A stretch of 64,000 bases of DNA. Source: an uncultured Candidatus Saccharibacteria bacterium (GTDB taxonomy: Bacteria; Patescibacteriota; Minisyncoccia; UBA6257). The position numbers and the translations under genes are program-made. The DNA is taken from positions 1 through 64,000 of the forward strand of contig CAYZJA010000001.1 of the NCBI GenBank assembly GCA_964479005.1, written 5' to 3'. Shown here piece by piece: positions 6,832 through 57,640 of this stretch (position 1 is its first letter; each line of letters opens with the position of its first letter). The notes beneath the pieces are model-generated. The model ran no database searches, had not been told where the DNA came from, and was given only the letters and a program-made list of their open reading frames with translations.

Positions 6832-8934
6832 ATGAAACAATTAGTTTTTAAACAAGGAAAAGTTGTTGTAGAAGAGGTTCCAACACCAGCTTGCGGAGCA
6901 GGCCAGATTTTAGTGGAAAATTTGTTTTCTTTAATTTCCTCTGGTACAGAATTATCAAGTTCAAATTATCCTACCAAATTAGCTAAAGGCATCAAATTGA
7001 TAAAAGAGCAGGGATTTTCCAATGCTTATAAAATAATTACAGGTATGCTTCAAGCAGGAGCAACGCCTGGATATAGTTGTTGTGGTCGCGTGATTAAAGT
7101 TGGGAAGGATGTAAATGATATTAAGAAAGGGGACATTGTTGCTTGTGCAGGAGCAAATATTGCCTCACATGCTGAGTTTATAGCTGTTCCAAGGAATTTA
7201 GCAGTAGAAGTCCCTAATGGGGTTTCTTTTGAAGATGCTTGTTCTGCCACAGTAGGTGCAATTGCTTTACAAGGTGTTAGGCAGGCAGATTTGCGCGTAG
7301 GAGAAAGTGTTGTAGTGGTTGGTTTGGGATTAATAGGTCAGTTAACTGCTCAGATTCTTTTGGCAAGTGGGATAAAAGTGATTGGTATTGAACTTTCCAA
7401 AGATAGAATAAAAAAAGCAAAAGAGAATGGTCTATTTAATGTTTTTTCTCCTACAGAGAAGAATCTTTTGAATAAAATTAATCATCTTACTAATTCACAA
7501 GGTGCAGACGCGACTATTATTACAGCTGCTAATCCATTAGATGATGAAATTATTAATCAAGCATTATTAATGACAAGAAAAAGGGGAAAGCTTGTTGTTG
7601 TAGGTGATATTGGTTTGAAAATTAATAGATTACCTTGGTATCAAAAGGAAATTGAATTGCGTATATCCACTTCTTATGGCCCTGGCAGAGGTGATTCTGA
7701 TTATGAAAACAAAGGAATTGATTATCCTTATGCTTATGTGAGGTGGACGGAAAATCGCAATATGCAGGCTTATCTGCAATTATTAAAAAACAAAAAAGTT
7801 GATTTTGGTTCTTTGATTGGAGGAAAATATTCTTTAGAACAGGCAGATTTAGCATATAAATTACTAAATTCTAAAAAGAAACCATTGGCAGTTCTGCTTT
7901 CTTATCCAGGCTCTATTTTAAAAGAAAAAGATTCGCAACAGTTTGTTGAATTATCTGTCCCGCAAAAAATTGAAGGGAAAATTGAATTAGGAATTATTGG
8001 AGTGGGAAGTTTTGCCCAGACCGTACATTTGCCTAATTTAATGAAATTAAGAGAATTTTACAGAATTCGTGGAATTTGTACCCATAATCAGGTAAAAGCC
8101 AAATATTTTGCCAGCCGTTATAATGCGAGTATTGCAACAACTGATTATAAAATTTTACTTAATGATCCAAAAATAAACCTTGTTATTATTAGCACAAGGC
8201 ATAATCTTCACGCTCAAATGGTGGTTGATGCTTTAAAAGCAGGGAAGAATATTTTTGTAGAAAAACCATTATGTCTAACCGAAGAAGAATTAAAAGAAAT
8301 TTTGGATATATTAAAAACACAAAATTTTGATTATTCTCCAATTGTTGCGGTTGGATTTAATCGGCGTTTTTCTCCGTTTATTCAGAAAATAAAAGAGGAA
8401 ATTGAGGATCGCCGCAGTCCAATAATAATTAATTATAGGGTTAATGATTCTTATCTTGCGCCAAGTCATTGGGTAAATACCAGCGAAGGCGGAGGAAGAG
8501 TTTTAGGCAATGCCTGCCATATGTTTGATGTTTTTTGCTATTTAGCTGAATCTGGAATTGAAAAAATTGATGCTCGCGCAATAACCTCAAAAGACACATT
8601 TTATCTTACTACTGACAATTTTGTTTCCACTATTAAATTTAAAGACGGCTCTTTAGCTAATTTAGTTTATACAACACAGGGAGATAGCGGAGCTGGTAAA
8701 GAATATATGGAGGTATATTCTGAGGGCAGAGTATTTATTCTAGATGATTATAAAAAGTTAAAAACATATGGGGTGAAAGCTGATATGAAAATGTACAAAC
8801 AAAATAAAGGGCTTTTTGAAGAGTTAAAAAGTTTAGCTTCTTGCTTGCAGCAGAGAAGAAGCCCAATGCCATTGGAGGAAATTATTAATGCAACTAAAAT
8901 TAGCTTAGAAGTGGATAAGCAAGTGAGAGGTTGA
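6832..8934 (+). CDS. Bi-domain oxidoreductase: N-terminal zinc-type alcohol dehydrogenase (MDR) fused to C-terminal Gfo/Idh/MocA NAD(P)-binding oxidoreductase
   Basis: N-terminal GroES-like plus Rossmann (VVVGLGLIGQL). Second Rossmann at IELGIIGVGSFAQ followed by an ISTRHNLHA...EKPLCLT Gfo/Idh/MocA-type core. Confidence 0.75.
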   Translation: MKQLVFKQGKVVVEEVPTPACGAGQILVENLFSLISSGTELSSSNYPTKLAKGIKLIKEQGFSNAYKIITGMLQAGATPGYSCCGRVIKVGKDVNDIKKGDIVACAGANIASHAEFIAVPRNLAVEVPNGVSFEDACSATVGAIALQGVRQADLRVGESVVVVGLGLIGQLTAQILLASGIKVIGIELSKDRIKKAKENGLFNVFSPTEKNLLNKINHLTNSQGADATIITAANPLDDEIINQALLMTRKRGKLVVVGDIGLKINRLPWYQKEIELRISTSYGPGRGDSDYENKGIDYPYAYVRWTENRNMQAYLQLLKNKKVDFGSLIGGKYSLEQADLAYKLLNSKKKPLAVLLSYPGSILKEKDSQQFVELSVPQKIEGKIELGIIGVGSFAQTVHLPNLMKLREFYRIRGICTHNQVKAKYFASRYNASIATTDYKILLNDPKINLVIISTRHNLHAQMVVDALKAGKNIFVEKPLCLTEEELKEILDILKTQNFDYSPIVAVGFNRRFSPFIQKIKEEIEDRRSPIIINYRVNDSYLAPSHWVNTSEGGGRVLGNACHMFDVFCYLAESGIEKIDARAITSKDTFYLTTDNFVSTIKFKDGSLANLVYTTQGDSGAGKEYMEVYSEGRVFILDDYKKLKTYGVKADMKMYKQNKGLFEELKSLASCLQQRRSPMPLEEIINATKISLEVDKQVRG

Positions 8935-8959
8935 CAAATCTAAAATATAGTAGTATAAT
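8931..8959 (+). promoter_or_regulatory. Consensus sigma70-type promoter (TTGACA-N17-TATAAT) driving the sRNA candidate
   Basis: TTGACA at 8931-8936, exact 17-nt spacer, TATAAT at 8954-8959. It overlaps the stop codon of the oxidoreductase gene. Confidence 0.6.
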
Positions 8960-8965
8960 AGCATG

Positions 8966-9127
8966 AAAGGCCTATTGATCTGTGGGCAAGCAAGCAAACG
9001 CTTGTCAGGGGTTCTCTGCAGATGGGTATCTTGGACATATTTATATGTCTGAGGTATACCTCGGGTTAATCTTTTAGTCTTCGTTTCGAAGGATATTTGC
9101 CTGCAGATTAATGGGCCTTTTTTTATT
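8966..9127 (+). ncRNA. Candidate structured small RNA (~160 nt), class unassigned (6S-like, SRP-like or novel)
   Basis: Predicted TSS 7 nt after the -10 element. A 15-bp closing helix pairs AGGCCUAUUGAUCUG (8968-8982) with CAGAUUAAUGGGCCU (9104-9118), followed by a U-run. Internal hairpins: GGCAAGC/GCUUGUC, GACAUAU/AUAUGUC, CUUCG/CGAAG. It lies between convergent genes with no CDS downstream, so it is not a leader. Confidence 0.45.
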
Positions 9128-9136
9128 GTGCGGGAA

Positions 9137-12031
9137 TTATACTCCAAGTACCCTTTTTATTTCTTCCCATGAGGTAATTCCCTGTAAAACTTTAATAACA
9201 GCGCTGTTAATTAATTTTGAAAATTTTACTTTTGTAAGATCTTTTGTTTCTGAAGGCGGTATAAGTATTTCAAATATTCCTGATTGGCCTTTATATCCGG
9301 TAAATCCACATTGGGTACAACCTTGAGCTTGGTAAATCTTTGAAGGCTTCTTATATTCTGGGAAATATTTCAAAGATGGCTTAATAAATTTAGACATTTC
9401 CGATGGAATTTTTATTTCTTTTTTACAATGAGGGCAAAGGCAACGGATTAATCGTTGCGCAATAACAGTGTTAATGGCAGGCATCAATTCTTTTGAAGGA
9501 ATTTCTAAACTCTGTAAACGTGATAAAACGCCTAAAGCGTCATTTGTATGAATAGTGGACAGAACCAAATGTCCTGTTGTAGACGCCTGCCAGACTAATT
9601 TAGCTGTTTCTTTGTCCCTAATTTCTCCAATTAGGAAAATGTTAGGGTTTTGGCGAAGCAAACTGCGAAGGACTTTGGAGAAGGTATATCCTTTTTCCTC
9701 ATTAACTTGAGTTTGCATAATTCCAGACAAGCGATATTCAATAGGATCTTCAACAGTAATCACTTTTACATCTGGCTTGGCAAGTTTTTTAAGTATTGTA
9801 AATAAAGTTGTGGTTTTTCCCGAAGAAGTAGGTCCGGCAGCTAAAATTAATCCGACTTTTTTTTCTAATACTTTTTCTATTTCTTCTTCCTGTTTCTTTA
9901 AAAATCCCAAGTTTTCTAAATTTAATAAAGATTCTTCCCCGCCCAAGATTCTTAAGGAGGCGCTTTCTCCATATCCGCCTGGAATTATTGAGAGCCTGAG
10001 GTCAAAAGATTTATCAGGAAGAATAAGCCGGAATCTTCCTTCTTGAATTATCTGTGTTTCCTCTGTTTTTAAACCGCTGAGGGCTTTTAATTCATTGATT
10101 AATTTAGGGTGTTCGTTGATATCAAAAGAAACTAATTTATGGAGCACTCCGTCAATTCTTTCCCTAATTTCACTGTTTTTTTCTTCTGGTTCAAAGTGGA
10201 CATCTGTAGCTCGTGATTTTAATGCAGTAGCTAAAATAATGGCAATTTGTCTTTCAGAAGATTTATCTTTTAGTAATGGAGAAATTGATTTATTTTTTTG
10301 AAGCAATTTTTCTATTTTCTTCTCTTCTTTGCTGCTTACTTTTACGCCTCGAGTCAAAACTTGAGAAAACAATTCTTTATATAATTCCTGGATATAGGAA
10401 ATATCACCTGCCACTCTTATAACTTCTTCCAAAGAAGTAATCCCTTCAATAGTTTTTAATAAACCGTCATGAAAAAGAGGCACCATTCCTTCGTCAATGG
10501 CTTTTGATCTTATTTCATTTTGGTCAGCGTCGGATCTGATTGTTTTAATAATTCTTGGACTTATATTAAAGTATTCAAAAATTCCAATCTGGCTTTTATA
10601 TCCCAACCAATGACATTTTGCGCAACCTTTTGATTTATAAAGATAGGGAATATCTTTTGGTATTTTTACTTTGCTTTTTGGAGAAAGAATACTAAAAGCC
10701 TCAATTAATCTTTCTTCCATTTCAGAAGTTGGTTTGTATTTTTCTTTGCAATCAGGACAGAGGCGTCGAATTAATCTTTGCGCCACGACTAATTTAAGCG
10801 CATTTGGAAGCATTTGGGCGTCAGCGCCTAATTCAACCAGTCTGGCAATAGTGCCGCTGGCTTCATTGGTATGGAGTGTAGAAAAAACTAAATGCCCGGT
10901 TAAAGCAGCTTGTATAGCGGTTTTTACTGTTTCTTCATCTCTCATTTCGCCAATCATAAGGACATCAGGATCTTGCCGGAGAATTGATTTTAATCCATTA
11001 GCAAAACCATATTTTTTTGATGTCTGAGTTTGGTTTACACCAACAAGCCGATATTCAATTGGATCTTCAATCGTGATAATTTTTACTCCCGGGGAAATCT
11101 TCTTTTTTAAAAAAGCGTATAAAGTAGTTGTTTTTCCCGAGCCTGTAGGTCCTGTGATTAAAATCATTCCATTTGGCGCTGATAAAGAATGGTTAAAAAC
11201 ATCTATACTTTTTTGTCCAATACCCAAATCTTTTAAACCAAAAGCGGCTCGTTTGGGGTTTAAGAGCCTAAATACTAAAAATTCTCCATGAGGACCTGGC
11301 AAGCTGGAAGCGCGAACATCAATAAAATTTTTATTATTTTGGATAGTAAATCTGCCATTTTGGGAAACATTTTCAATATTTAATTTTAAGCCAGACAAAA
11401 GCTTTAATCTTTGGTTAATGCCGCGGTGTTTCTTTTTTTCTATTTCAGAAACATCATATAAGACACCGTCCACACGAAAACGAACAAGAGCGCAGTCTTC
11501 CTGCGGTTCAATATGAATGTCAGAGGCGTCTATTTCAACAGCTGATTTTAAAATAAGAGAGACCAATAATGTGACTTCTTCTGTGGGAAGGGGTAAAAGT
11601 TCTTGATGAAGATCGGAAAATGCTATGGATTTAGCGCTAGTTACATCTATAAAATTTGACAATTCTTTTTGATGCTCATGGACAAAAGCATAATTTTTCC
11701 ATGCCCAATTAAGGCTTTCCTCAGTAACAACAAAAACGGCAACCTTATATCTTTCTTTTTTAATTTCTTCAATTGTTTTTATTGTTTCAGTATTAAAAGG
11801 GTCTAAAACAGCTAATTTAATTTGATTTCCTATTTTTTGGAAAGCAATAATATTAGTTTTTCTTGCTTTTTCTTCTGGAATTATAGAAAGAGCGCTTGTT
11901 TCAATTGGCGCTTTTCTTAAGTCAACATAAAGAAAATTGTGTTTTTCAGCCAGCCTCTGCGCTTCTCTTTCTTTTGATTCTTGCCAAAGAGCTTTAATTT
12001 TTTCCTCTCTTTTTTTGGCGAAGTCATTCAT
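9137..12031 (-). CDS. pilB: Type IV pilus/T2SS assembly ATPase (GspE/PilB family), complete intragenic tandem duplication with two full ATPase modules
   Basis: GspE_N-like N-terminus. Module 1: Walker A GPTGSGKTT, Walker B DPDVLMIGEMRD, His box TGHLVFSTLHTN, tetracysteine CPDC...CAKC. Module 2: GPTSSGKTT, NPNIFLIGEIRD, TGHLVLSTIHTN, CPHC...CTQC. Confidence 0.85.
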   Translation of the reverse strand: MNDFAKKREEKIKALWQESKEREAQRLAEKHNFLYVDLRKAPIETSALSIIPEEKARKTNIIAFQKIGNQIKLAVLDPFNTETIKTIEEIKKERYKVAVFVVTEESLNWAWKNYAFVHEHQKELSNFIDVTSAKSIAFSDLHQELLPLPTEEVTLLVSLILKSAVEIDASDIHIEPQEDCALVRFRVDGVLYDVSEIEKKKHRGINQRLKLLSGLKLNIENVSQNGRFTIQNNKNFIDVRASSLPGPHGEFLVFRLLNPKRAAFGLKDLGIGQKSIDVFNHSLSAPNGMILITGPTGSGKTTTLYAFLKKKISPGVKIITIEDPIEYRLVGVNQTQTSKKYGFANGLKSILRQDPDVLMIGEMRDEETVKTAIQAALTGHLVFSTLHTNEASGTIARLVELGADAQMLPNALKLVVAQRLIRRLCPDCKEKYKPTSEMEERLIEAFSILSPKSKVKIPKDIPYLYKSKGCAKCHWLGYKSQIGIFEYFNISPRIIKTIRSDADQNEIRSKAIDEGMVPLFHDGLLKTIEGITSLEEVIRVAGDISYIQELYKELFSQVLTRGVKVSSKEEKKIEKLLQKNKSISPLLKDKSSERQIAIILATALKSRATDVHFEPEEKNSEIRERIDGVLHKLVSFDINEHPKLINELKALSGLKTEETQIIQEGRFRLILPDKSFDLRLSIIPGGYGESASLRILGGEESLLNLENLGFLKKQEEEIEKVLEKKVGLILAAGPTSSGKTTTLFTILKKLAKPDVKVITVEDPIEYRLSGIMQTQVNEEKGYTFSKVLRSLLRQNPNIFLIGEIRDKETAKLVWQASTTGHLVLSTIHTNDALGVLSRLQSLEIPSKELMPAINTVIAQRLIRCLCPHCKKEIKIPSEMSKFIKPSLKYFPEYKKPSKIYQAQGCTQCGFTGYKGQSGIFEILIPPSETKDLTKVKFSKLINSAVIKVLQGITSWEEIKRVLGV

Positions 12032-22682: not shown

Positions 22683-23030
22683 ATGGAGAAAACATTGATT
22701 GGGTATCTTTTAAAACAAATTGGTTTTTACTGTTCTGATTTTATCAGGGCTTACTTTAAAGGTGGCTACAGTTTCTTTTTTAGAATTTATCAATATCATT
22801 TTTCAAAATTGGAACGTAACACAGGTTTCATAGTTAATATTCGTTATTTTACCATTCCGCTTTGGCAGCAATATTCTTTTGCCTCTTATCTTATAAGTAT
22901 TCCCTATAGAATAACAAGAATTATTTTAGGGGCAGTGCTTTTAATAATTTTAACCCTGTTCTTTTCGGCAATTTATCTTTGTTGGATATTTTTGCCTGTT
23001 TACCTTATTCTAAAAACCATTTCACCATGA
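22683..23030 (+). CDS. Small hypothetical membrane protein (2 predicted TM helices)
   Basis: Hydrophobic C-terminal half. Stop overlaps the next gene's start (ATGA at 23027). Confidence 0.4.
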   Translation: MEKTLIGYLLKQIGFYCSDFIRAYFKGGYSFFFRIYQYHFSKLERNTGFIVNIRYFTIPLWQQYSFASYLISIPYRITRIILGAVLLIILTLFFSAIYLCWIFLPVYLILKTISP

Positions 23031-25585
23031 TGAAAAAAGAGACAAAACAAAAGAAGGTTGAGCAAAAATCAGGGGAGAAAACTGAGTTATTTTTCTCTGA
23101 TGCCTTCTTCTTTTGGCCTACATGGCAAAGATTTTTTTATAAAGTAATTCTTACTGTTTTTATTTCTTTAGGATTGATATTTTCTTTTTTCTTGGTGGTT
23201 CTTCGCATACAACCATGGTACAACTTAGGCATTCTTGTTTTATTGTTTTTCATCTACGTTCTTTTTAAACAAAATCTTTCAGATTTGCCTTTAGCAGAAA
23301 AATATTTTAAACAGAAAAAGATTAATTTAGCTCGTTTTCTTTCTCCACAAGCCAAAAATGTCCTTATTGAAGCAAGAGACGTTTCTTTTACTTTTCAACT
23401 TGATTTTTTTCAAGGAATTCTTTATGTCCTTCTTTCCCAAAGAGAGATAATTGATGCATTAGATATATTAGACATATCTTCAGAGGAGATAGAAGAGTTA
23501 AAGAAAAGAATAAAAGAAGAAAAAGCGGGTAAAAAAGAAATTACAAAAGAAAATTATCAAAAATTTTTAGAACAAATTACTTACTGGGCTTTTTTTGAAG
23601 CCAAGAAATTAAAGAAAAACTCTATAAACCCTGAATCCTTACTATTAGCTCTTTATTCTATTGGTAATTCTAAAATTTCTGATGCTTTTAATTTTTATCG
23701 TTTGGAAAAAAATGATTTGGCTGTAGCGTTTGTTTTGAATTATCTTTCGCGAATAAAAGGCATAGAAGTTCTAAAAGGATTAGCTGACAAAAGACAATTT
23801 AGCTTTCGGTTAAAAAGAGTAAAAGTTAATCGTTCTTTTACGTCCCGCCCTACACCATTCTTGGATTTATATGGCTTGGATTTTACTGAGCTGGCTTTAA
23901 AGCTAAAAATAGGCATTATGATAGGCCATGAGCAGGAATACCAAAGCCTTTTAGATATCTTGTGCCGCGAAGGCAGAAGAAATATCCTTTTAGTTGGACC
24001 AGCTGGCGTAGGAAAAGATACGTTAGTTTCCTATCTGGCTTTTAATTTAGTCAGAGATAAATCTCCTTTAAAATTACGGGATCGCCGCCTCATCAGCCTT
24101 TCCATCTCTTCTATTTTAGAGGATACAAAAGAGCCATTAGAGGTTTATAACCGTTTAACAAAGATTACAAAAGAGCTTTTAATTAACAGGGATATAATTA
24201 TTTATCTGCCACAATTTCATAATTATAAATTATTGGCTCAAAAAGGAGGATTTACCGCTTTAGAAGTTTTCCAATCACTAATAAATGCTTCATGGGTGCC
24301 TGTGATTGCGGCAACGACTCCTGCAGACTATCAACGTTATTTAGAACGAGATCCGATTGTGAAAGAGAATTTTGAAATCATTAAAGTAAAAGAGCTTTCT
24401 TCTGAAGAATCAATAAGGTTTTTAGCTTATCGTTCTTTGGAACTAAAAAGAAAAACCAAAGTAAAAATCAGTTACAAAGCCATTAAGAGAGCTGTAATTT
24501 TAGCTCAACGTTTTCTGACTTCAACTCCTTTGCCGTCTTCTGCAGAATCTCTTTTGACTGAAGCTATTGAAGGGGTTCGCAGAAAAGGCGGAAAAATAGT
24601 TTTAGAACAAGATATAGTTGATTTGGTAAGCTTAAAAACCCAAGTACCTTTAGAGGTTTCTTCTGAGCAGGAAAGGGAAAAATTATTGAATTTAGAAAAA
24701 CTTATTCATGAACGCTTAATTAATCAGGAAAAAGCAGTAAGTTTAGTATCTGCCGCTTTAAGACAATATAGGGCTGGTTTAACAAATGTTAAAAAACCAA
24801 TCGGTGTTTTTCTTTTTGTTGGGCCTACTGGAGTAGGTAAGACCCAATTAGCAAAAACATTGGCTAAAATTTATTTTGGAAGTGAAAAAACTATGATTCG
24901 TTTTGATATGGCAGAATATCAGGATAGAAAAAGCATTAATCGTTTTATTGGCAATCCTGAGGGAACAATGAGCGGATCTTTGACTGAAGCAGTAAAGAAT
25001 AAGCCTTTTTCCTTGATTCTTTTAGATGAATTTGAAAAAGCCCATTCAGATGTTTTAAATATTTTTCTTCCTGTTTTTGACGAAGGGAGATTGACTGATA
25101 ATCTCGGGCAAGTTATTGATTTTACTAATGCAATCATTATTGCGACTTCTAATGCTTTATCTGATTTTATAAAAAACGAAATAGAAAAGAATGTTGATAT
25201 TGACGATTTATCAGAAAGATTAAAAAAGAAATTAACGAATTACTTTAAGCCAGAGCTTTTGAACAGGTTTAACGAAGTTGTTGTTTTTAGGCCGTTAACT
25301 CAAGAGCACCTTAAAGAGATAGTAAAATTAAAATTAAATGAATTAGCATCTGCTTTATCAAAGAATAAAAAAATAGAATTATCTTTTGATAATTCTGTTA
25401 TTGAACGATTGGCTAAATTAGGCTATAACCCAATATTTGGAGCTCGGCCCTTAGATTCAGTAATCAGGCATTACATAAAAGATAATTTAGCCAGTTCCAT
25501 TCTAAGAAAGAAAATTAGTCCAAATACCAAGGTACATTTTACTTTAGAAGAAAACGAGTTTAAAGCGAGGATTGAATCTATTTAA
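23027..25585 (+). CDS. Membrane-anchored Clp/Hsp100-family AAA+ protein with degenerate D1 and intact D2 ATPase domains
   Basis: Start set at the ATGATG at 23027 (ATGA coupling). Two N-terminal TM helices, then two Clp_N-like repeats. D1 Walker A is GPAGVGKD (T to D) and D1 Walker B is IIIYLPQFH (no DE). D2 has [19 protein letters not shown] and ATSN. Confidence 0.75.
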   Translation: MMKKETKQKKVEQKSGEKTELFFSDAFFFWPTWQRFFYKVILTVFISLGLIFSFFLVVLRIQPWYNLGILVLLFFIYVLFKQNLSDLPLAEKYFKQKKINLARFLSPQAKNVLIEARDVSFTFQLDFFQGILYVLLSQREIIDALDILDISSEEIEELKKRIKEEKAGKKEITKENYQKFLEQITYWAFFEAKKLKKNSINPESLLLALYSIGNSKISDAFNFYRLEKNDLAVAFVLNYLSRIKGIEVLKGLADKRQFSFRLKRVKVNRSFTSRPTPFLDLYGLDFTELALKLKIGIMIGHEQEYQSLLDILCREGRRNILLVGPAGVGKDTLVSYLAFNLVRDKSPLKLRDRRLISLSISSILEDTKEPLEVYNRLTKITKELLINRDIIIYLPQFHNYKLLAQKGGFTALEVFQSLINASWVPVIAATTPADYQRYLERDPIVKENFEIIKVKELSSEESIRFLAYRSLELKRKTKVKISYKAIKRAVILAQRFLTSTPLPSSAESLLTEAIEGVRRKGGKIVLEQDIVDLVSLKTQVPLEVSSEQEREKLLNLEKLIHERLINQEKAVSLVSAALRQYRAGLTNVKKPIGVFLFVGPTGVGKTQLAKTLAKIYFGSEKTMIRFDMAEYQDRKSINRFIGNPEGTMSGSLTEAVKNKPFSLILLDEFEKAHSDVLNIFLPVFDEGRLTDNLGQVIDFTNAIIIATSNALSDFIKNEIEKNVDIDDLSERLKKKLTNYFKPELLNRFNEVVVFRPLTQEHLKEIVKLKLNELASALSKNKKIELSFDNSVIERLAKLGYNPIFGARPLDSVIRHYIKDNLASSILRKKISPNTKVHFTLEENEFKARIESI

Positions 25586-26609: not shown

Positions 26610-26645
26610 GTTTTATAAAAAGATTAATTGTTTAAGATATTTTAG

Positions 26646-27023
26646 TGGAGAAGGTGGGAGTTGAACCCACGTCTAAAAAGAATTTTTTAAATAATTCTAC
26701 GAGTGTAGTTCATTCTTTGTATCTCTTAAGAAAAGAAAGAATGAACAGACTTTTCTTAAAATTCTCCGAAAATAGTTCAATTGATTTTTGGTCGGAAAAG
26801 CCAGAAACCAATCTATCTCGAGGTTTATATCCTTTGGGGCTATCGAGAATCATCCCAAAGAATTTCCCTTAAAAAGGAATGGCTTAGCCTAAACGATTAA
26901 GCATAGGCATAAGCAGGAGTTTGATTGGCATTTATTGATGCCGCCTTGATTTTTATTGAGGGTACAAGACATCCTCAACTCGCTTATTTAAAAACTCTCT
27001 TTTTATCGAATCCCGTCATCCCC
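26646..27023 (-). ncRNA. ssrA: tmRNA (SsrA), standard one-piece form; predicted tag ANQTPAYAYA
   Basis: 5' end GGGGAUGACGGGAUUCGA... 3' end ...GACGUGGGUUCAACUCCCACCUUCUCCA (T-arm plus acceptor, CCA not encoded) closely matches the E. coli tmRNA 3' end. Internal reading frame GCC AAU CAA ACU CCU GCU UAU GCC UAU GCU UAA. Adjacent to smpB. Confidence 0.8.
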
Positions 27024-27035
27024 ATAACTGCATTA

Positions 27036-27485
27036 TCAAATTTCTCCTCTTTTAGCTCTATCTATTTTTCTTCTACTTTCTTTTTTCTTTATACTTTCTC
27101 TTTTATCAAATTTCTTTTTTCCTTTTGCTAATCCTAATTCTATCTTGATTAAACCGTGTTTATTATACATTCTTAGTGGTATTAAAGTCAAGTTTTTTTG
27201 TTTAATCTTACCTAATAGATGTGCTATTTGTTTTTTATTGAAAAGGAGTTTTCTGGTTCTGTCAGGATTGTAAATAAAATGAATATTTTTTGGCTGGTAA
27301 GGCGCAATAGAGCAATTTACAAGAGAAACTCTGTTATCCCTGATAATAGCAAAGCTGCCTGCTAAGTTAGCTTTTCCTGTTTTTACTGCCTTTGTTTCCA
27401 TTCCAGATAATACAATTCCTGCTTCTATTCTTTCTAGAATTTCATAATTAAAATATGCCTTTTTGTTTGTAGCTAAGGGTTTCAT
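27036..27485 (-). CDS. smpB: SsrA-binding protein SmpB
   Basis: KKAYFNYEILERIEAGIVLSGMETKA...GKANLAGSFA... canonical SmpB with basic C-terminal tail. Confidence 0.9.
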   Translation of the reverse strand: MKPLATNKKAYFNYEILERIEAGIVLSGMETKAVKTGKANLAGSFAIIRDNRVSLVNCSIAPYQPKNIHFIYNPDRTRKLLFNKKQIAHLLGKIKQKNLTLIPLRMYNKHGLIKIELGLAKGKKKFDKRESIKKKESRRKIDRAKRGEI

Positions 27486-42547: not shown

Positions 42548-45181
42548 GTGCCTTTAGGAAGATTTACAGCAAAAGCTCAAGCGGCGATAGAAAGGGCTCA
42601 GCAAATGGCTATGGAAAGAAACCAGGGAGAGATGCGCGCTCTCCATCTTTTGTATGTTTTGTTGGACGAAGAAGGGTCTGGCCCAAGGGAGATTTTAGAA
42701 AAAGAATTAAAAATTAATGTAGAAAAATTCTTAAAGAAGATATTAGAGGAAATTGTTAAATTACCGCGCATCTTTTCTGTTGGCAAGGGTTTTGGTCCAA
42801 TGTATCTTTCTCAGGAAATGTTGCAAATTATAGAAGTTACCGCTAAAAAAGCGATGGAGGAAAAAAATGAATTTATTTCCCCAGAATATTTATTTTATGG
42901 CATACTTGCTTCTAAAAATTCTGCGCAGGAATTAATAAGCGAATTTAATATTAGCAAGGAAGAGTTTTTAAAAGCTCTTCATCATTATACAGCTGGTGAA
43001 AAAATTACTGATGAATTTCAAGAAGTTGGCGCTAATGCTATAGAAAAATATACCCAAGATCTTACTGAATTAGCAAGAGAGAATAAATTGGACCCAGTGA
43101 TAGAAAGGGAGGAAGAATTACGGCGAGTTATGCAGATATTGTCACGCAGGACAAAAAATAACCCAATATTAATGGGTGAAGCAGGTGTAGGAAAAACCGC
43201 TATTGTAGAAGGATTGGCTCAACGTATTGCTTCTTCCGAAGTTCCGGAAAGTTTAATTGATAAAAAAATTATATCATTAGATTTAGGGGCATTAATAGCC
43301 GGGACCCGTTTTAGAGGGGAGTTTGAAGAACGATTAAAAAATCTTCTTAAAGAAATAAAAAAGGCCGGTAATATTATAATTTTCATTGACGAAATTCATA
43401 CATTGGTAGGAGCAGGAGCGGCTGAAGGAGCTATTGACGCTTCTAATTTATTAAAACCCGCATTAGCCAGAGGTGAATTGCGGGCTATTGGAGCGGCAAC
43501 TTTTAAAGATTATCGTGAATATATTGAAAAAGACCCGGCTTTAGAAAGACGTTTTCAGCCAGTATTAGTAGAAGAACCTTCAATTGAAGAAGCAATTGAG
43601 ATTTTACGGGGATTAAAATCAAAATATGAAGCTCATCATGGATTAAAGATATCTGATCAAGCAATTATAATGGGAGTACAATTATCCAGCCGTTATATTA
43701 CCTCCCGTTTTTTGCCTGATAAAGCCATAGATTTAATGGATGAAGCCGCTTCATCAATGAGCTTGGATATTGGTAGCATTCCTTTGCCCATCTCTGAATT
43801 AGAAGCCAAAATAAAATCTCTGGAACTGCAAAAAGAGGCAAGCAAAAAGGAAATACGGGAAGGTAAAAAAATAACGCAAGATAGAAGAAGAATCGGAAAC
43901 GAGTTGAAGAAATTAAAACAAAAATATAATAAGATAAAAAGTAAATGGCAGAAGGAAAAAGAAATATTTAACGAAGTGAGCGCCATTAAAAAAGAAATAG
44001 AGGAATTAGAAAAAAATTCGCAAGAATTTGAGAGGACTGGGCAATTAGATAAAGTTGCGGAAATAATTTATGGTAAAATTCCCCAATTAAAAAAAACATT
44101 AAGATTCAATGGAAAGTCTTTGAGTAAAATTTCCGAAGAAGAAAGGTTTTTAAAAGATGAGGTAACAGCTGAAGATATCGCCCGCGTAGTTTCCCGATGG
44201 ACTGGAATTCCTGTAACAAGAATGCTTGAAGAGGAAAGCAAAAAATTAGTGAGAATGGAGAAAGACTTAAGCAAAAGAGTTGTGGGGCAAAAAGAGGCTA
44301 TTTTTGCGGTAAGCAGGGCTATTAGAAGAGCCCGCGCAGGAATATCAGAAGAAGACAGACCCATAGGTTCTTTTATGTTTTTGGGGCCAACTGGAGTGGG
44401 AAAAACAGAGCTTGCTAGGGCTTTGGCAGAATTTATGTTTTCTAATGAAAAAGCAATGATTCGTATAGATATGTCCGAGTATATGGAAAAACATAGTGTT
44501 GCCCGTTTAATTGGTTCTCCTCCTGGATATGTTGGTTATGAAGAAGGGGGGCAATTAACAGAAGCAATAAAACATCGCCCATATAGCCTGATTTTGTTTG
44601 ATGAAATAGAAAAGGCCAATCCAGAGGTATTTAATATTCTTCTTCAAATATTAGATAATGGCCGTCTTACTGACGGTAAGGGTCGGGCAGTGAATTTTAA
44701 AAACACAATTATTATTATGACCTCTAACTTGGGCGGGGAATATTTACAGGAAATGGTTTCTTTGGGATTTGTTGCGAATAAAAAGAATAAGGTGGAACAA
44801 CAGAAAGAGGAATTAAAAAATAAAATTCATGATGCTTTAAGGGAAAAATTCCGTCCAGAATTTCTTAATCGTGTTGATGAAATTGTCATTTTTAATACTT
44901 TAAGCATTCGGAGCATAGAAAAAATTGTGGATTTGCAAATAAATATAATTAATCATCGGTTAGTTGATAAGAAGATTGCTTTAAAATTAAGCAAAGAGGC
45001 AAAGAAATATTTAGCTCAAAAAGGTTATAATCCTAATTATGGCGCACGACCGTTAAAAAGACTTATTGAAAAAGAAGTCCTTGATCCTTTAGCTGATGAA
45101 ATTATCAAAGGCAAAATAAAAGAAGGAAACAAAATTACCGTTTCTTTCAAGAAAAATACTCTGAATTTATGCAAAAAATAA
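42548..45181 (+). CDS. clpB: Chaperone ClpB (Hsp100 disaggregase) with middle coiled-coil domain
   Basis: Clp_N repeats. D1 GEAGVGKT / IIFIDEIH. M-domain coiled coil. D2 GPTGVGKT / [10 protein letters not shown]. Confidence 0.9.
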
Positions 45182-54732: not shown

Positions 54733-55428
54733 ATGTTGTTTGGCGGTCTACAAAAAACAACTTTAGTTGATTATCCGGGGAAAGTGGCAGCTACTGTTTT
54801 CGCTGTTGGCTGTAATTTTCGTTGTCCATATTGTCATAATCCAGAATTAGTTTTACCAGAATTAATAAAAAAACAGCCAAAAATTACAGAAAAAGAAATT
54901 CTTGATTTTTTAAAAGAACGCCAGAAATTATTAGAAGGATTATGTATTACTGGAGGAGAACCCACTATTCAACCTGATTTAATTGATTTTATAAAAAAAG
55001 TAAAGGATTTGGGTTTTTTGATAAAATTAGACACGAATGGTTCTTGCCCAGATGTTTTAAATAGTTTAATCGAGGAAAAGTTAATAGACTATGTGGCAAT
55101 GGATATAAAAGCGCCGAAAGAAAAATATGAAATTTTTAGTGAAGATGAGAAGATTATAGAAAAAGTTAATAAAAGTATTGAATTATTAAAGAAAGATAAA
55201 ATTGATTATGGATTTAGAACAACTTTGGTGTCTGATATTTTAGATGAGCAGGATATTTTGGCCATTGTTAATTGGATAAAATTCGCTCCTCATTATTATC
55301 TTCAGCGTTTTCAAAAAGGCAAGGTTTTGGATGAGAAATTTCAAAATGCCCAACCGTGGTCAGAACAAAGAACAAAGCAACTATTAAAAAAAATAAAACC
55401 GTATTTTTCCAAATGTAGTATAAGATGA
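54733..55428 (+). CDS. nrdG: Anaerobic RNR activating enzyme (radical SAM)
   Basis: CNFRCPYCHNPE CxxxCxxC cluster motif and a G-rich SAM motif. Confidence 0.88.
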   Translation: MLFGGLQKTTLVDYPGKVAATVFAVGCNFRCPYCHNPELVLPELIKKQPKITEKEILDFLKERQKLLEGLCITGGEPTIQPDLIDFIKKVKDLGFLIKLDTNGSCPDVLNSLIEEKLIDYVAMDIKAPKEKYEIFSEDEKIIEKVNKSIELLKKDKIDYGFRTTLVSDILDEQDILAIVNWIKFAPHYYLQRFQKGKVLDEKFQNAQPWSEQRTKQLLKKIKPYFSKCSIR

Positions 55429-56819
55429 CGCTCTCGGCTTCAAAAGTATTTCGTCAATGCGGGGCGTCTTTTTTAATTGGTGTAATTTTATCTTATTACT
55501 TTTCCTTATCTGTTGTTTTCTTCTTTGCTTTCTTACTTTGCGTTTATCTTTATTATAAAAGAAAAGAATTTATTGTTTTGATTTTAGTTTTATTAAGTTT
55601 ATTTTTAGGGGGATATCGATATTTTGTTGTTTTTAGAGAATTAAAAAATACTGCAATTGTGGAAGAAGTGCAAATAGAAATCAAAGCTCCAATTATTGCA
55701 GAGCCTATTCTTAAAGAGAATTATCAAAGAATTATCATCTCAAAAATTGTTATCTATGCAGATAGATATCCTCGTTATCATTATGGGGATATTATAAATA
55801 TTAAAGGCAAAGTTAAACCCTTTTCTGACTTTCGTTCATATAGCTCAATAATTGTTTCTGGAAGAATGAGTTATCCCTCAATTGAGCTTTTTTCTCCAGC
55901 TAAATTTTCTTTGAGAAGAGCCGCTTTATTAGTAAAAAATAAAATTACATCATCTTTACAAAAAATAATTCCTGAACCCAAATCCAGCCTTCTTATTAGT
56001 TTAATGTTTGGCGCTAAAAATAATTTAACGTCTATTTTGGAAGAACAAATAAGAAGATGTGGTTTATCTCACGTTATTGTCGCGTCTGGCCTTCATTTAT
56101 CAATAATAGCAAAAGCGCTTTCTGGTTTTCTTGATATTTTATGTATGAGTAATTCTGTTAATTTTATTATTTCTTTTCTGTTTATATTAAGCTTTGCTTT
56201 TATGGCAGGTTTAACTCCGTCTATTATTCGGGCTGCTATTATGGCGTCTTTATTGATTTTATCCCGTTTCAGTTTTCGTCTTTACAATTCCTTTAATGCT
56301 CTGCTTTTAGCTGCTGTGATAATGATTTGGTTAAATCCTTTGGTTCTTTTTTGGGATTTGGGTTTTCAACTTTCTTTTTTAGCTACTGCAGGGATAATTT
56401 TTCTTTATCCTATATGGAAAGAAAGTCCATTTTGGCAACAAGATTGGTTTAATCAAAAAGGCCAGATTATCAGGGAAACAGCTCTTTCTACATTTTCAGC
56501 TTTAACATTTGTTATTCCTTGGGTGATATTTAAAATGCAGGTTTTTTCTCTGGTTTCTCCAATTACAAATCTTTTAATCCTTCCTTTGGTTCCTTTAATA
56601 ATGGCAGGCGGAGCAATTGTAGCGATTTCTTCTTTATTGTTTTATCCATTAGGGCTTTTTCTCGGGGCTTTGCTTAATTTAATTCTTGCCTATTTCCTAA
56701 AAGTTATTTCATTATTTTCTTCTTTGCCTTGGTCGCAGATTTATATTCCATCCATTTTACATTGGCTCATTATTCCTTATTATATTTTTCTTTTCTTCTA
56801 CATTCGCAAAAGAACATGA
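55425..56819 (+). CDS. comEC: ComEC/Rec2 DNA-uptake channel, membrane portion (DUF4131 + competence domain)
   Basis: Polytopic. Conserved ISLMFGAKNNLTSILEEQIRRCGLSHVIVASGLHLSII. Confidence 0.8.
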   Translation: MTLSASKVFRQCGASFLIGVILSYYFSLSVVFFFAFLLCVYLYYKRKEFIVLILVLLSLFLGGYRYFVVFRELKNTAIVEEVQIEIKAPIIAEPILKENYQRIIISKIVIYADRYPRYHYGDIINIKGKVKPFSDFRSYSSIIVSGRMSYPSIELFSPAKFSLRRAALLVKNKITSSLQKIIPEPKSSLLISLMFGAKNNLTSILEEQIRRCGLSHVIVASGLHLSIIAKALSGFLDILCMSNSVNFIISFLFILSFAFMAGLTPSIIRAAIMASLLILSRFSFRLYNSFNALLLAAVIMIWLNPLVLFWDLGFQLSFLATAGIIFLYPIWKESPFWQQDWFNQKGQIIRETALSTFSALTFVIPWVIFKMQVFSLVSPITNLLILPLVPLIMAGGAIVAISSLLFYPLGLFLGALLNLILAYFLKVISLFSSLPWSQIYIPSILHWLIIPYYIFLFFYIRKRT

Positions 56820-57640
56820 AAAAACTTTTTAAGTATTTTTTAATAATTTTCATTTGTGCCAACATTTTTGCTTATTGGATTATTCTTGATTTTCTTTATA
56901 TGCCTAAAGGTGAAGTGAGTTTTTTATCTGTTGGACAGGGTGATGCTCAACTTATTCAAATTTTAGCTGGCAATATTTTAATTGACGCTGGCCCTGACGC
57001 GAAAATTCTTTCTGAATTAGACAAATTATTGCCTTTTTACGACAGGACAATTGATCTATTTATACTTTCTCACCCTAACAAAGACCATCTTAATGGTCTG
57101 TTTGATATATTGGAAAGATATAAAATTAGGGCTGTAATGCTTAATAATTTATCTTATTCTAGTTCTTTGTTTCAAAAACTGCTCCAAGAATTAGACAAAA
57201 GAGGAATATTGATAATTAAGGGAATAACTGGTGTAAATGTAAGTTGGGAAAATCAAGACAATCTTTTATTTCTTTATCCAGATACAATGGTTTCTTCCAG
57301 GCAAGATCCTAATAAATTTAGTTCGGTTAATATGTTATTTTTGGGACAAAATTGTTTTCTTTTTACTGGAGACATTAGTTTTGCCCAAGAAAAGAAAATC
57401 CTGCCTTTGCTTTCCTGTTCTAATGATAATTCTCACATACTAAAAGTGCCGCATCATGGTTCTCGTTATTCATCTTCCAATCTGTTTTTAGAAAAATTTA
57501 AACCTCAAATAGCGGTTATTGAGGTAGGGGAAAACAGTTATGGTCATCCACATCCTGACACGCTTGAGCGTTTAAAAAACATTGGCGCTCAAATCTTTCG
57601 CACTGATTTAGACGGTACAATCCGTTTTAAAATTAAATAG
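56816..57640 (+). CDS. ComEC-type metallo-beta-lactamase domain protein, encoded separately from the channel
   Basis: GQGDAQLIQ...IDAGPD, HPNKDHLNGL, HHGSRYSSS MBL motifs. Start set at the ATG at 56816, which overlaps the comEC stop (ATGA). Confidence 0.75.
   Translation: MKKLFKYFLIIFICANIFAYWIILDFLYMPKGEVSFLSVGQGDAQLIQILAGNILIDAGPDAKILSELDKLLPFYDRTIDLFILSHPNKDHLNGLFDILERYKIRAVMLNNLSYSSSLFQKLLQELDKRGILIIKGITGVNVSWENQDNLLFLYPDTMVSSRQDPNKFSSVNMLFLGQNCFLFTGDISFAQEKKILPLLSCSNDNSHILKVPHHGSRYSSSNLFLEKFKPQIAVIEVGENSYGHPHPDTLERLKNIGAQIFRTDLDGTIRFKIK

Follow-up and report, generated by a model that had tools for sequence, protein, structure and literature searches.

In a 64,000-nucleotide stretch of DNA from an uncultured Candidatus Saccharibacteria bacterium (assembly GCA_964479005.1, contig CAYZJA010000001.1; the whole stretch is referred to here as the window), the minus-strand gene at positions 9137-12031 encodes a PilB/GspE-family ATPase that carries two motor cores in one polypeptide. 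This two-module motor is a conserved architecture of a clade of the candidate phyla radiation (CPR) for which no published description was found. We consider it reasonably likely that it represents a functional extension-type ATPase with an in-gene tandem core, of which three chains would form a six-module ring serving as the motor of a pilus or pseudopilus.

The gene is a single open reading frame (ORF) with an ATG start, 964 amino acids (aa) and zero internal stops. The Pfam family T2SSE (PF00437) is matched in two stretches of the protein, with 693.8 bits against a gathering cutoff of 24.9, whereas the N-terminal MshEN domain is present in one copy, before module 1 only (residues 35-113, 37.6 bits, cutoff 23.1). 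Residues 157-542 align to residues 596-963 with 41% identity (E = 4e-90). A preliminary description of this DNA had proposed two full GspE-type cores behind a single GspE_N domain, and had suggested aligning the halves as a check; the uninterrupted ORF, the Pfam matches and the similarity of the halves bear this out. The layout read from these data is N1D-[N2D1-CTD1]-53-residue structured linker-[N2D2-CTD2], in which the core made of N2D and the C-terminal domain (CTD), of about 400 residues, is doubled in tandem within the gene. Each module has a Walker A motif (GPTGSGKT at 294 in module 1, GPTSSGKT at 733 in module 2), an intact Asp box (IEDPIEY, 322-327; VEDPIEY, 761-766), an atypical Walker B followed by the catalytic Glu (DPDVLMIGEMRD at 354; NPNIFLIGEIRD at 795), a His box (TGHLVFSTLHTN at 378; TGHLVLSTIHTN at 819) and two CxxC pairs (at 425 and 470; at 866 and 905). 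All the motifs quoted in the preliminary description are thus present, but the segment DPDVLMIGEMRD, labelled there as an Asp box, is the atypical Walker B with the catalytic Glu.

The family was collected from 5.8 billion protein clusters (90% identity), and the best 120 matches were retained for the conservation counts given below. Among them, 119 have a length of 925-1030 aa, with a query coverage of 95-100% and an identity of 40-91%, and their named sources are Paceibacterota, Minisyncoccia, Moranbacteria or Parcubacteria. Three independent contigs (NCBI, JGI and Logan; the longest of 551,616 bp) carry the exact 964-aa sequence, whose 90% cluster has 24 members; among the 15 listed, which come from separate NCBI, JGI and ENA assemblies, 11 are of 964 aa and one of 973 aa. 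By its source names, this protein belongs to Candidatus Paceibacterota. HMMER, run exhaustively over 1.84 billion representatives (50% identity), returned 14,458 proteins at E <= 1e-30, of which 13 are full two-module proteins (978-1018 aa, > 690 bits), and below these the scores fall to the single-module level. Judging from these searches, the tandem architecture is rare among secretion ATPases (roughly 0.1% of clusters) yet stable in one CPR clade. Family members bear the generic database label 'GspE/PulE family protein', and a full-text literature search, with most subscription journals outside its scope, found no description of a tandem or fused PilB/GspE ATPase, nor did targeted reading of work on the evolution of type IV filaments, on CPR protein families, on the two pili of Saccharibacteria and on a Patescibacteria genome. 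Regarding the possibility raised in the preliminary description that such proteins are already common and described, the first part holds within the CPR clade, whereas a description was not found.

Since the genome derives from a metagenome, and tandem repeats are a known assembly hazard, the ORF might in principle be the false joining of two adjacent or collapsed pilB genes. However, the halves are 52% identical at the DNA level, with a longest identical run of 11 nucleotides (nt); together with 41% identity at the protein level, this leaves nothing for an assembler to collapse or mis-join. The recurrence of the exact protein on three contigs from three sources, the same continuous architecture in at least 120 clusters down to 40% identity, and the conserved length of the linker all speak against an artefact as well. 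On this evidence the explanation is effectively refuted, its remaining probability being next to negligible, and the assembly collapse against which the preliminary description had advised a check is ruled out by the divergence of the halves and the recurrence of the protein.

The residues needed for PilB function were defined by McCallum et al. in 2017, and include the Walker A motif, an Asp-box Glu that coordinates Mg2+, two arginine fingers, a Walker B in which Gly takes the place of the usual acid and is followed by the catalytic Glu, R455, the pore-loop residue D398, and four Zn-binding cysteines (PMC5424180). The equivalents of Geobacter metallireducens PilB R271, R286, E357, E395, T411, H413, H420, R455, D398 and the four cysteines are, in both modules, invariant or within two sequences of it among the 120 homologs, and the catalytic motifs themselves do not vary in either module. 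In module 1 and module 2, respectively, the corresponding residues are R240/R679, R255/R694, E326/E765, G361/G802, E362/E803, T378/T819, H380/H821, H387/H828, R422/R863 and D365/D806. The arginines R240 and R255, equivalent to R271 and R286 (PMC5424180), are present in 120/120 homologs, as are the Zn cysteines of both modules (C425,428,470,473 and C866,869,905,908), and E765, G802 and E803 of module 2 are invariant. The mean pairwise identity is likewise close between the modules, at 50.8% (N2D1) versus 47.6% (N2D2) and 59.6% (CTD1) versus 54.8% (CTD2). The two modules thus appear to evolve at similar rates, under equal purifying selection, and both keep all the residues needed to bind and hydrolyse ATP and to coordinate Mg2+ and Zn, as well as those of inter-subunit sensing, so that both are apparently active. 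The earlier impression that both modules are intact and neither has decayed is therefore well founded. By comparison, N1D is the least conserved folded part of the protein (36% mean pairwise identity).

Compared with 172 single-module PilBs, module 1 has zero systematic departures from the canonical consensus, and module 2 departs from it only at the two Asp residues that precede the Walker B strand, where DPD becomes NPN. A relaxed test, for positions that are constant inside each module but differ from one module to the other, gave four across the family, all of them within residues 346-356/787-797, in the helix and turn that run into the Walker B strand. Module 2 has A787, L791, N795 and N797 there, against G, I, D and D in module 1 and in canonical PilB. 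The NPN sequence is also found in a single-module PilB (P0201). A catalytic impairment of module 2 through the DPD to NPN change was considered and rejected, since in the PilB family Mg2+ is held by the Asp-box Glu (PMC5424180), so the two substitutions take away no catalytic residue, and E765, G802 and E803 are invariant. A specialization of N2D1 and N2D2 for different platform domains is likewise unsupported, with 0 of the 4 distinguishing positions lying in an N2D.

Regarding family membership, all the marks of the PilB/GspE clade are found in both sequence and fold, namely N1D, the N2D+CTD fold, the motifs and the tetracysteine Zn site, the last of which belongs to the PilB/GspE clade and is absent in PilT/PilU and FlaI (PMC5424180). 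The whole protein exceeds the equivalog cutoffs of both TIGR02538 for type IVa pilus PilB (768.8 vs 675.65 bits) and TIGR02533 for type II secretion GspE (787.4 vs 630.25 bits), but it does so because the two modules are summed, which amounts to double counting. Against the ComGA model NF041000 (equivalog cutoff 300), the halves containing module 1 and module 2 score 233 and 247.5 bits, and against the PilT/PilU model TIGR01420 (cutoff 319) the first half scores 168.6 bits, the second being unlisted at E <= 1e-40. The protein should be classed as an ATPase of the PilB/GspE family whose motor core is in tandem, and not as an equivalog of type IVa pilus PilB, type II secretion GspE, TfpB or ComGA.

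Bifunctional motors reportedly exist in Tad systems, and one could picture module 1 extending the filament and module 2 retracting it, that is, PilB and PilT in one chain. The absence of an adjacent pilT at the tandem locus would fit with this, several other CPR pilB genes having pilT directly downstream. However, module 2 resembles PilB throughout: it has the tetracysteine Zn motif that the PilT/PilU clade lacks (PMC5424180), it reaches 343-358 bits on the PilB/GspE models while falling short of E = 1e-40 on the PilT family, its place in a neighbour-joining tree of modules is among CPR PilB cores and apart from PilT, and an AIRNLIRE-type motif was not found in it. For these four reasons a PilT-like retraction role for module 2 was rejected, and we regard a combined extension and retraction motor as very improbable.

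An AlphaFold2 model of the chain, built on an alignment of 60 sequences, has a predicted local distance difference test score (pLDDT) of 86.3 and a predicted template modelling score (pTM) of 0.50. In this model N1D is an alpha/beta domain with a pLDDT of about 80-89, followed by a connector to N2D1 that has a low-pLDDT hinge at 119-124 and whose length ranges from 40 to 48 residues in the family. A Foldseek comparison with the PDB matched PilB (5tsh) and PilF (5oiu and 5it5) with target-relative TM scores of 0.88-0.91 and root-mean-square deviations of 2.3-3.2 A, one module per match, and a solved chain spanning both modules was not seen among the structures retrieved. Between the modules, the model has a helix (544-555), a low-confidence hinge (554-560), a strand (562-564) and two further helices (567-579 and 584-587), a secondary structure that resembles that of the segment preceding N2D1. 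The Q542-Q596 distance ranges from 51 to 57 residues and equals 53 in 105 of the 120 sequences, Y546, Y551, Q557, L559, R561 and G562 are conserved, and the linker has no internal Met. It is thus predicted to be a constrained structural element and not a loose tether. That both catalytic sites and the linker length are kept throughout a large CPR clade indicates that the fusion is functional.

The way in which such a chain could assemble is suggested by PilB itself. In PilB, each N2D rests against the CTD of the adjacent chain, and the ring consists of six such packing units with ATP bound between them (PMC5424180). By analogy, in the simplest assembly three tandem chains would form one six-module ring, (M1-M2)x3, in which M1 (module 1) and M2 (module 2) alternate and which would be equivalent to the PilB hexamer, with one of the two types of N2D:CTD packing unit becoming intramolecular. 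This trimer of tandems appears to be the best structural hypothesis. Since neither site has degenerated, a rotary cycle in which all six sites fire is proposed. The ring would dock on a trimeric PilC-type platform, a protein with an ancient internal duplication (PMC6668835). The model of a PulF (GspF/PilC) trimer, which is experimentally supported, has an alternating ring of Cyto1 and Cyto2 domains with one ATPase N2D per Cyto domain, giving a 6:3 complex (PMC10790770), and here each of the six N2Ds would be matched with one of the six alternating Cyto1/Cyto2 domains. PilM would meet only three N1D anchors per ring, and the motor would drive the polymerization of a type IV pilus or of a competence-type pseudopilus. 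The likely advantages would be that three chains, not six, have to be assembled, and that neighbour relationships are fixed.

The preliminary description had gone one step further, suggesting that the fusion hard-wires the asymmetry of a C2 hexamer with alternating subunit states. Neither element of this suggestion survives comparison with PilB, where the C2 pattern is closed-closed-open-closed-closed-open, which is not alternating, and where opposite subunits are equivalent (PMC5424180). The fusion cannot encode this asymmetry, because opposite positions in an alternating (M1-M2)x3 ring are an M1 and an M2; an alternating C3 pattern is the sole one compatible with a fusion-encoded asymmetry in such a ring. 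That the two sites are equally conserved speaks against a fixed division of labour between them, and their full conservation argues that each site goes through all states.

A different arrangement would be a hexamer of tandems forming two stacked rings, one of M1 and one of M2, with twelve sites, as in double-ring AAA+ machines such as ClpB or p97. The integrity of both modules agrees with it, a 53-residue linker with a flexible hinge could span two tiers, and the pTM of 0.50 leaves the inter-module geometry open. However, stacked rings were not seen among the PilT/GspE-family structures retrieved, and each chain has one N1D anchor only. Besides, since in current models it is the N2D face that engages the platform (PMC10790770), the N2Ds of one ring would be left partnerless, yet N2D2 is as conserved as N2D1. 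We thus consider this arrangement improbable, although less so than a combined extension and retraction motor.

Several observations weigh against the proposal of a functional pilus or pseudopilus motor built from a trimer of tandems. The single halves fall below the TIGR02538 and TIGR02533 cutoffs (432 and 343 bits on TIGR02538, 434 and 358 on TIGR02533, for half 1 and half 2), and the choice of pilus assembly over another type IV filament would rest on family-level homology. With a pTM of only 0.50, the model has well-defined domains with an undefined relative orientation of the modules. Among the ten two-module loci compared (the window, L001, L081, L082/L083 and L084-L088), a pilC, pilM or pilin gene is adjacent in 0/10, and the gene is never inside a pil operon. 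Finally, a family-wide specialization of N2D1 versus N2D2 was not found, all four distinguishing positions adjoining the Walker B strand, and with the two N2Ds undifferentiated the data give no account of why the fusion was favoured.

The genes around the tandem motor are typical CPR housekeeping genes, and include polA, tsaE, rtcB, archease, ileS, smpB/tmRNA, rpoB/C, ftsA/Z, nrdD and comEC. Pfam scans of ORFs of at least 120 aa, complemented by a check for pilin-like N-termini, found no pilC, pilM/N/O, pilD or pilin gene in the window, nor a second T2SSE ORF, so that the earlier statement that pil genes are not adjacent can be extended to all 64 kb. In two relatives, genes of the PilM_2 family lie 8-9.5 kb from the tandem gene, which shows that pilus machinery exists in such genomes.

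A contig scan with generic motifs (GPTGSGKTT and T[VI]EDPIEY), whose listed matches are mostly single-module pilB loci, was the basis for a comparison of synteny. In the conserved CPR block that it revealed, pilB is flanked by polA<-tsaE and, downstream, by ruvB->ruvC (or recG), and archease-rtcB is often close by. The same slot is occupied by a single-module pilB of 560-700 aa in L004, L006, L007, L010, L011, L013 and L017, and by a pilB of 431-437 aa without N1D in L019, L020, L026, L028 and L035 (at about 10000-11300 in each), which are genomes of Wildermuth-, Nealson- and Staskawiczbacteria type. The tsaE | pilB -> ruvB locus thus holds three PilB architectures across CPR, and the tandem gene is the positional ortholog of the orphan pilB, duplicated in place. 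A second class of CPR pilB lies beside pilT or pilM in true pilus loci and shows very strong conservation. The Paceibacterota/Kaiserbacteria PilB represented by L031 (9812-11560), encoded outside the tsaE-ruvB locus, is 87-96% identical to all 120 listed 90% clusters of its own search, a much narrower span than the 40-91% of the tandem family.

The orphan-locus pilB, single or tandem, could power a competence-type DNA-uptake pseudopilus, leaving the adhesive or motility pilus to the PilB of the pil operon. This proposal agrees with the architecture favoured here and competes with it only on the filament. It draws on the synteny with repair and recombination genes, kept across distant CPR lineages (polA upstream; ruvB, ruvC or recG downstream), on the split between one pilB class at this locus and another beside pilM or pilT, on the presence of ComEC in the window, and on the presumed dependence of CPR on DNA uptake (PMC6744442; PMC11809585). 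On the other hand, synteny between core informational genes may be without functional meaning when genomes are reduced, the ComGA scores of 233-247 bits per module lie under the cutoff of 300 and under the PilB/GspE scores, and comG-like pilin genes are not adjacent. A competence-specific role is thus somewhat unlikely, even if it is a reasonable alternative and deserves more weight than the others considered. ComEC itself is split in the window over two overlapping plus-strand ORFs, with a Competence domain at 55425-56819 and a metallo-beta-lactamase domain at 56729-57640, which agrees with the fused ComEC-lactamase form being reported as essentially absent from CPR (PMC6744442).

With regard to its origin, the neighbour-joining tree pairs M1 and M2 of the window in 0/100 bootstraps. 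Module 1 groups among the single-module and N1D-less pilB proteins of the same CPR locus, and the module 2s of the main family form a weakly supported clade (26-51% bootstrap). Two other proteins from the same syntenic locus have halves that are mutually closest in 100/100 bootstraps, P0128 (74% identical) and P0129 (56% identical), and both group with single-module genes from this locus. In P0128 (L087:3226-6213), 30-codon windows reach 97-99% nucleotide identity, with an identical run of 74 nt, and identity is 51-71% outside two such stretches. This mosaic indicates that the modules have exchanged tracts by intragenic gene conversion. The locus would thus be subject to repeated duplication or concerted evolution, or to a combination of them, with independent duplication and gene conversion not cleanly separable in P0128 and P0129.

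Outside CPR, P0135 (L089:10001-13144; 1047 aa) begins with two T2SSF (PilC-type) repeats (78.5 bits) that are soluble, lacking a transmembrane segment. Its two T2SSE modules come after these and are mutually closest in 85/100 bootstraps, and its gene lies in a non-CPR context of sulfatases, an ECF sigma factor and BatA. It carries platform-like domains and tandem motors at 2:2 in one chain. The tandem architecture may have arisen more than once, in two CPR lineages at the locus and in this non-CPR protein with mutually closest halves. The joining of two T2SSF-like repeats to two ATPase modules in P0135, an independent case, counts in favour of the tandem motor as proposed here. It is conceivable, although we lean slightly to the side of doubt, that the tandem is a natural single-chain motor 'dimer' whose trimer forms a pseudo-hexameric ring mirroring the trimeric, internally duplicated PilC platform, a solution that would recur at the CPR locus and in P0135.

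In comparison with PilB from G. metallireducens, Thermus thermophilus (PilF) and Myxococcus xanthus, and with GspE/EpsE from type II secretion, the tandem protein shares the order N1D-N2D-CTD, the Walker A, the Asp box, the atypical Walker B with the catalytic Glu, the His box, the arginine fingers and the tetracysteine Zn site, and each module superposes on PilB/PilF at a TM score of about 0.9. Contrary to them, it has two N2D-CTD cores per chain, joined by the 53-residue linker, and one N1D per two motors, and its gene is solitary where theirs form a pilB-pilT-pilC operon. The single-module and N1D-less pilB genes of the CPR locus (L006, L007, L011, L013, L019, L026 and L028) have the same position and neighbours, and several have the same structured RNA downstream, but they encode one motor core (431-630 aa) and not two in tandem. 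Ring ATPases with covalently linked subunits have been engineered, and rings with alternating subunits exist in nature, such as F1 alpha3beta3, where two related P-loop modules alternate around a six-membered ring and one type is without catalysis. Unlike in F1, both modules of the tandem PilB are intact in sequence. Acinetobacter baylyi likewise has two diverged PilB-type extension ATPases, PilB and TfpB, both needed for one machine, but these are separate genes and proteins with proposed temporally distinct roles, whereas the tandem is covalent and fixed at 1:1 (PMC8213720). As for the PilC/GspF platform, there too an internal duplication yields a pseudo-six-fold ring from three chains (PMC10790770; PMC6668835); it belongs to a different protein family, and its pairing with the tandem ATPase is our inference.

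Table 1. Parts of the two-module ATPase gene, its 3' neighbourhood and copies of the neighbouring RNA. Positions refer to the window unless a locus is given.
Feature	Residues	Positions	Strand	Basis or details
Two-module PilB/GspE-family ATPase gene, stop codon included		9137..12031	minus	ORF list, Pfam, halves alignment
N1D (MshEN/GspE_N-type)	1-120	11672..12031	minus	Pfam MshEN 35-113; one per chain
N1D-N2D1 connector (strand + helix)	121-152	11576..11671	minus	AlphaFold2 secondary structure
N2D of module 1	153-270	11222..11575	minus	Arginine fingers R240, R255; R227; conservation in homologs
CTD of module 1	271-543	10403..11221	minus	Motifs, conservation, Foldseek
CTD1 sites				Walker A 294-301, Asp box 322-327, Walker B + catalytic E362, His box 378-387, R422, Zn site C425/C428/C470/C473
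Inter-module linker	544-591	10259..10402	minus	AlphaFold2 and family alignment
N2D of module 2	592-709	9905..10258	minus	R666, R679, R694 invariant; conservation in homologs
CTD of module 2	710-964 + stop	9137..9904	minus	Motifs, conservation
CTD2 sites				Walker A 733-740, Asp box 761-766, Walker B + catalytic E803, His box 819-828, R863, Zn site C866/C869/C905/C908
Module-2 signature segment	787-797	9641..9673	minus	Module comparison across family
Sigma-70 promoter (8931-8959) and structured RNA of about 162 nt (8960-9121)		8931..9121	plus	Outside protein; convergent with gene 3' end
RNA copy		L081:12922-13089	minus	
RNA copy		L001:9183-9355	minus	
RNA copy		L084:13036-13200	minus	
RNA copy		L082:13045-13224	minus	
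RNA copy		L085:13045-13219	minus	
RNA copy		L086:13064-13231	minus	
RNA copy		L088:13059-13226	minus	
Further RNA copies		L020, L019, L035, L011, L028, L017		

The gap of 200 nt downstream of the tandem gene holds a promoter of perfect consensus (TTGACA-17-TATAAT) and a structured RNA with a minimum free energy of -71.9 kcal/mol (z = -9.5). Its fold combines a long closing helix with two variable hairpins and a conserved central one that bears a GGUUYCGRCUG-type motif, and it has no match in Rfam. The RNA is always found in the interval from pilB to ruvB, on the opposite strand to pilB. Six other two-module loci have it at the same position and in the same orientation, and the alignment with these has compensatory changes in 16/34 consensus pairs. 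A covariance model (R1) detects it in loci outside the training set (L088, L020, L019, L035, L011, L028 and L017), including loci with single-module and short pilB genes. The RNA thus belongs to the locus and not to the fusion, and represents a candidate new CPR RNA family.

Other features of the window were noted in passing. A plus-strand ORF at 6832-8934 encodes a 700-aa fusion of ADH_zinc_N and GFO_IDH_MocA domains, and adjoins a Wzy_C O-antigen-ligase-like gene and two PG_binding_1 proteins. Two ClpB-like AAA+ genes are present in these 64 kb of a reduced genome, at 22979-25585 and 42548-45181, both on the plus strand; in the first, the second AAA module and the D2-small domain alone are matched at E <= 1e-8. 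The tmRNA (tag ANQTPAYAYA) lies directly beside smpB, at 26643-27023 and 27036-27485 on the minus strand, an ordinary arrangement.

How PilB-type ATPases convert ATP hydrolysis into pilin polymerization is unresolved, with regard to C2 versus C3 symmetry, the number of firing sites, and a dimeric versus a trimeric platform. The three-chain, six-module logic of the tandem agrees with the recently proposed PilC/GspF trimer and, if true, a trimer of tandems would give independent evolutionary support for the contested 6:3 stoichiometry of ATPase to platform. A fused motor fixes the neighbours, and one substitution (E362Q or E803Q) alters every second site, whereas in ordinary homohexamers such an alternate-site mutation requires engineered linked subunits. 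If the proposed ring is correct, the protein would thus be a ready-made tool to ask whether all six sites must hydrolyse ATP, or alternate ones only. At present this tandem motor goes unnoticed behind the label 'GspE/PulE family protein'. Type IV pili have a central part in CPR episymbiosis and DNA scavenging, which makes a clade-specific motor architecture at a conserved non-pilus locus relevant to the biology of CPR.

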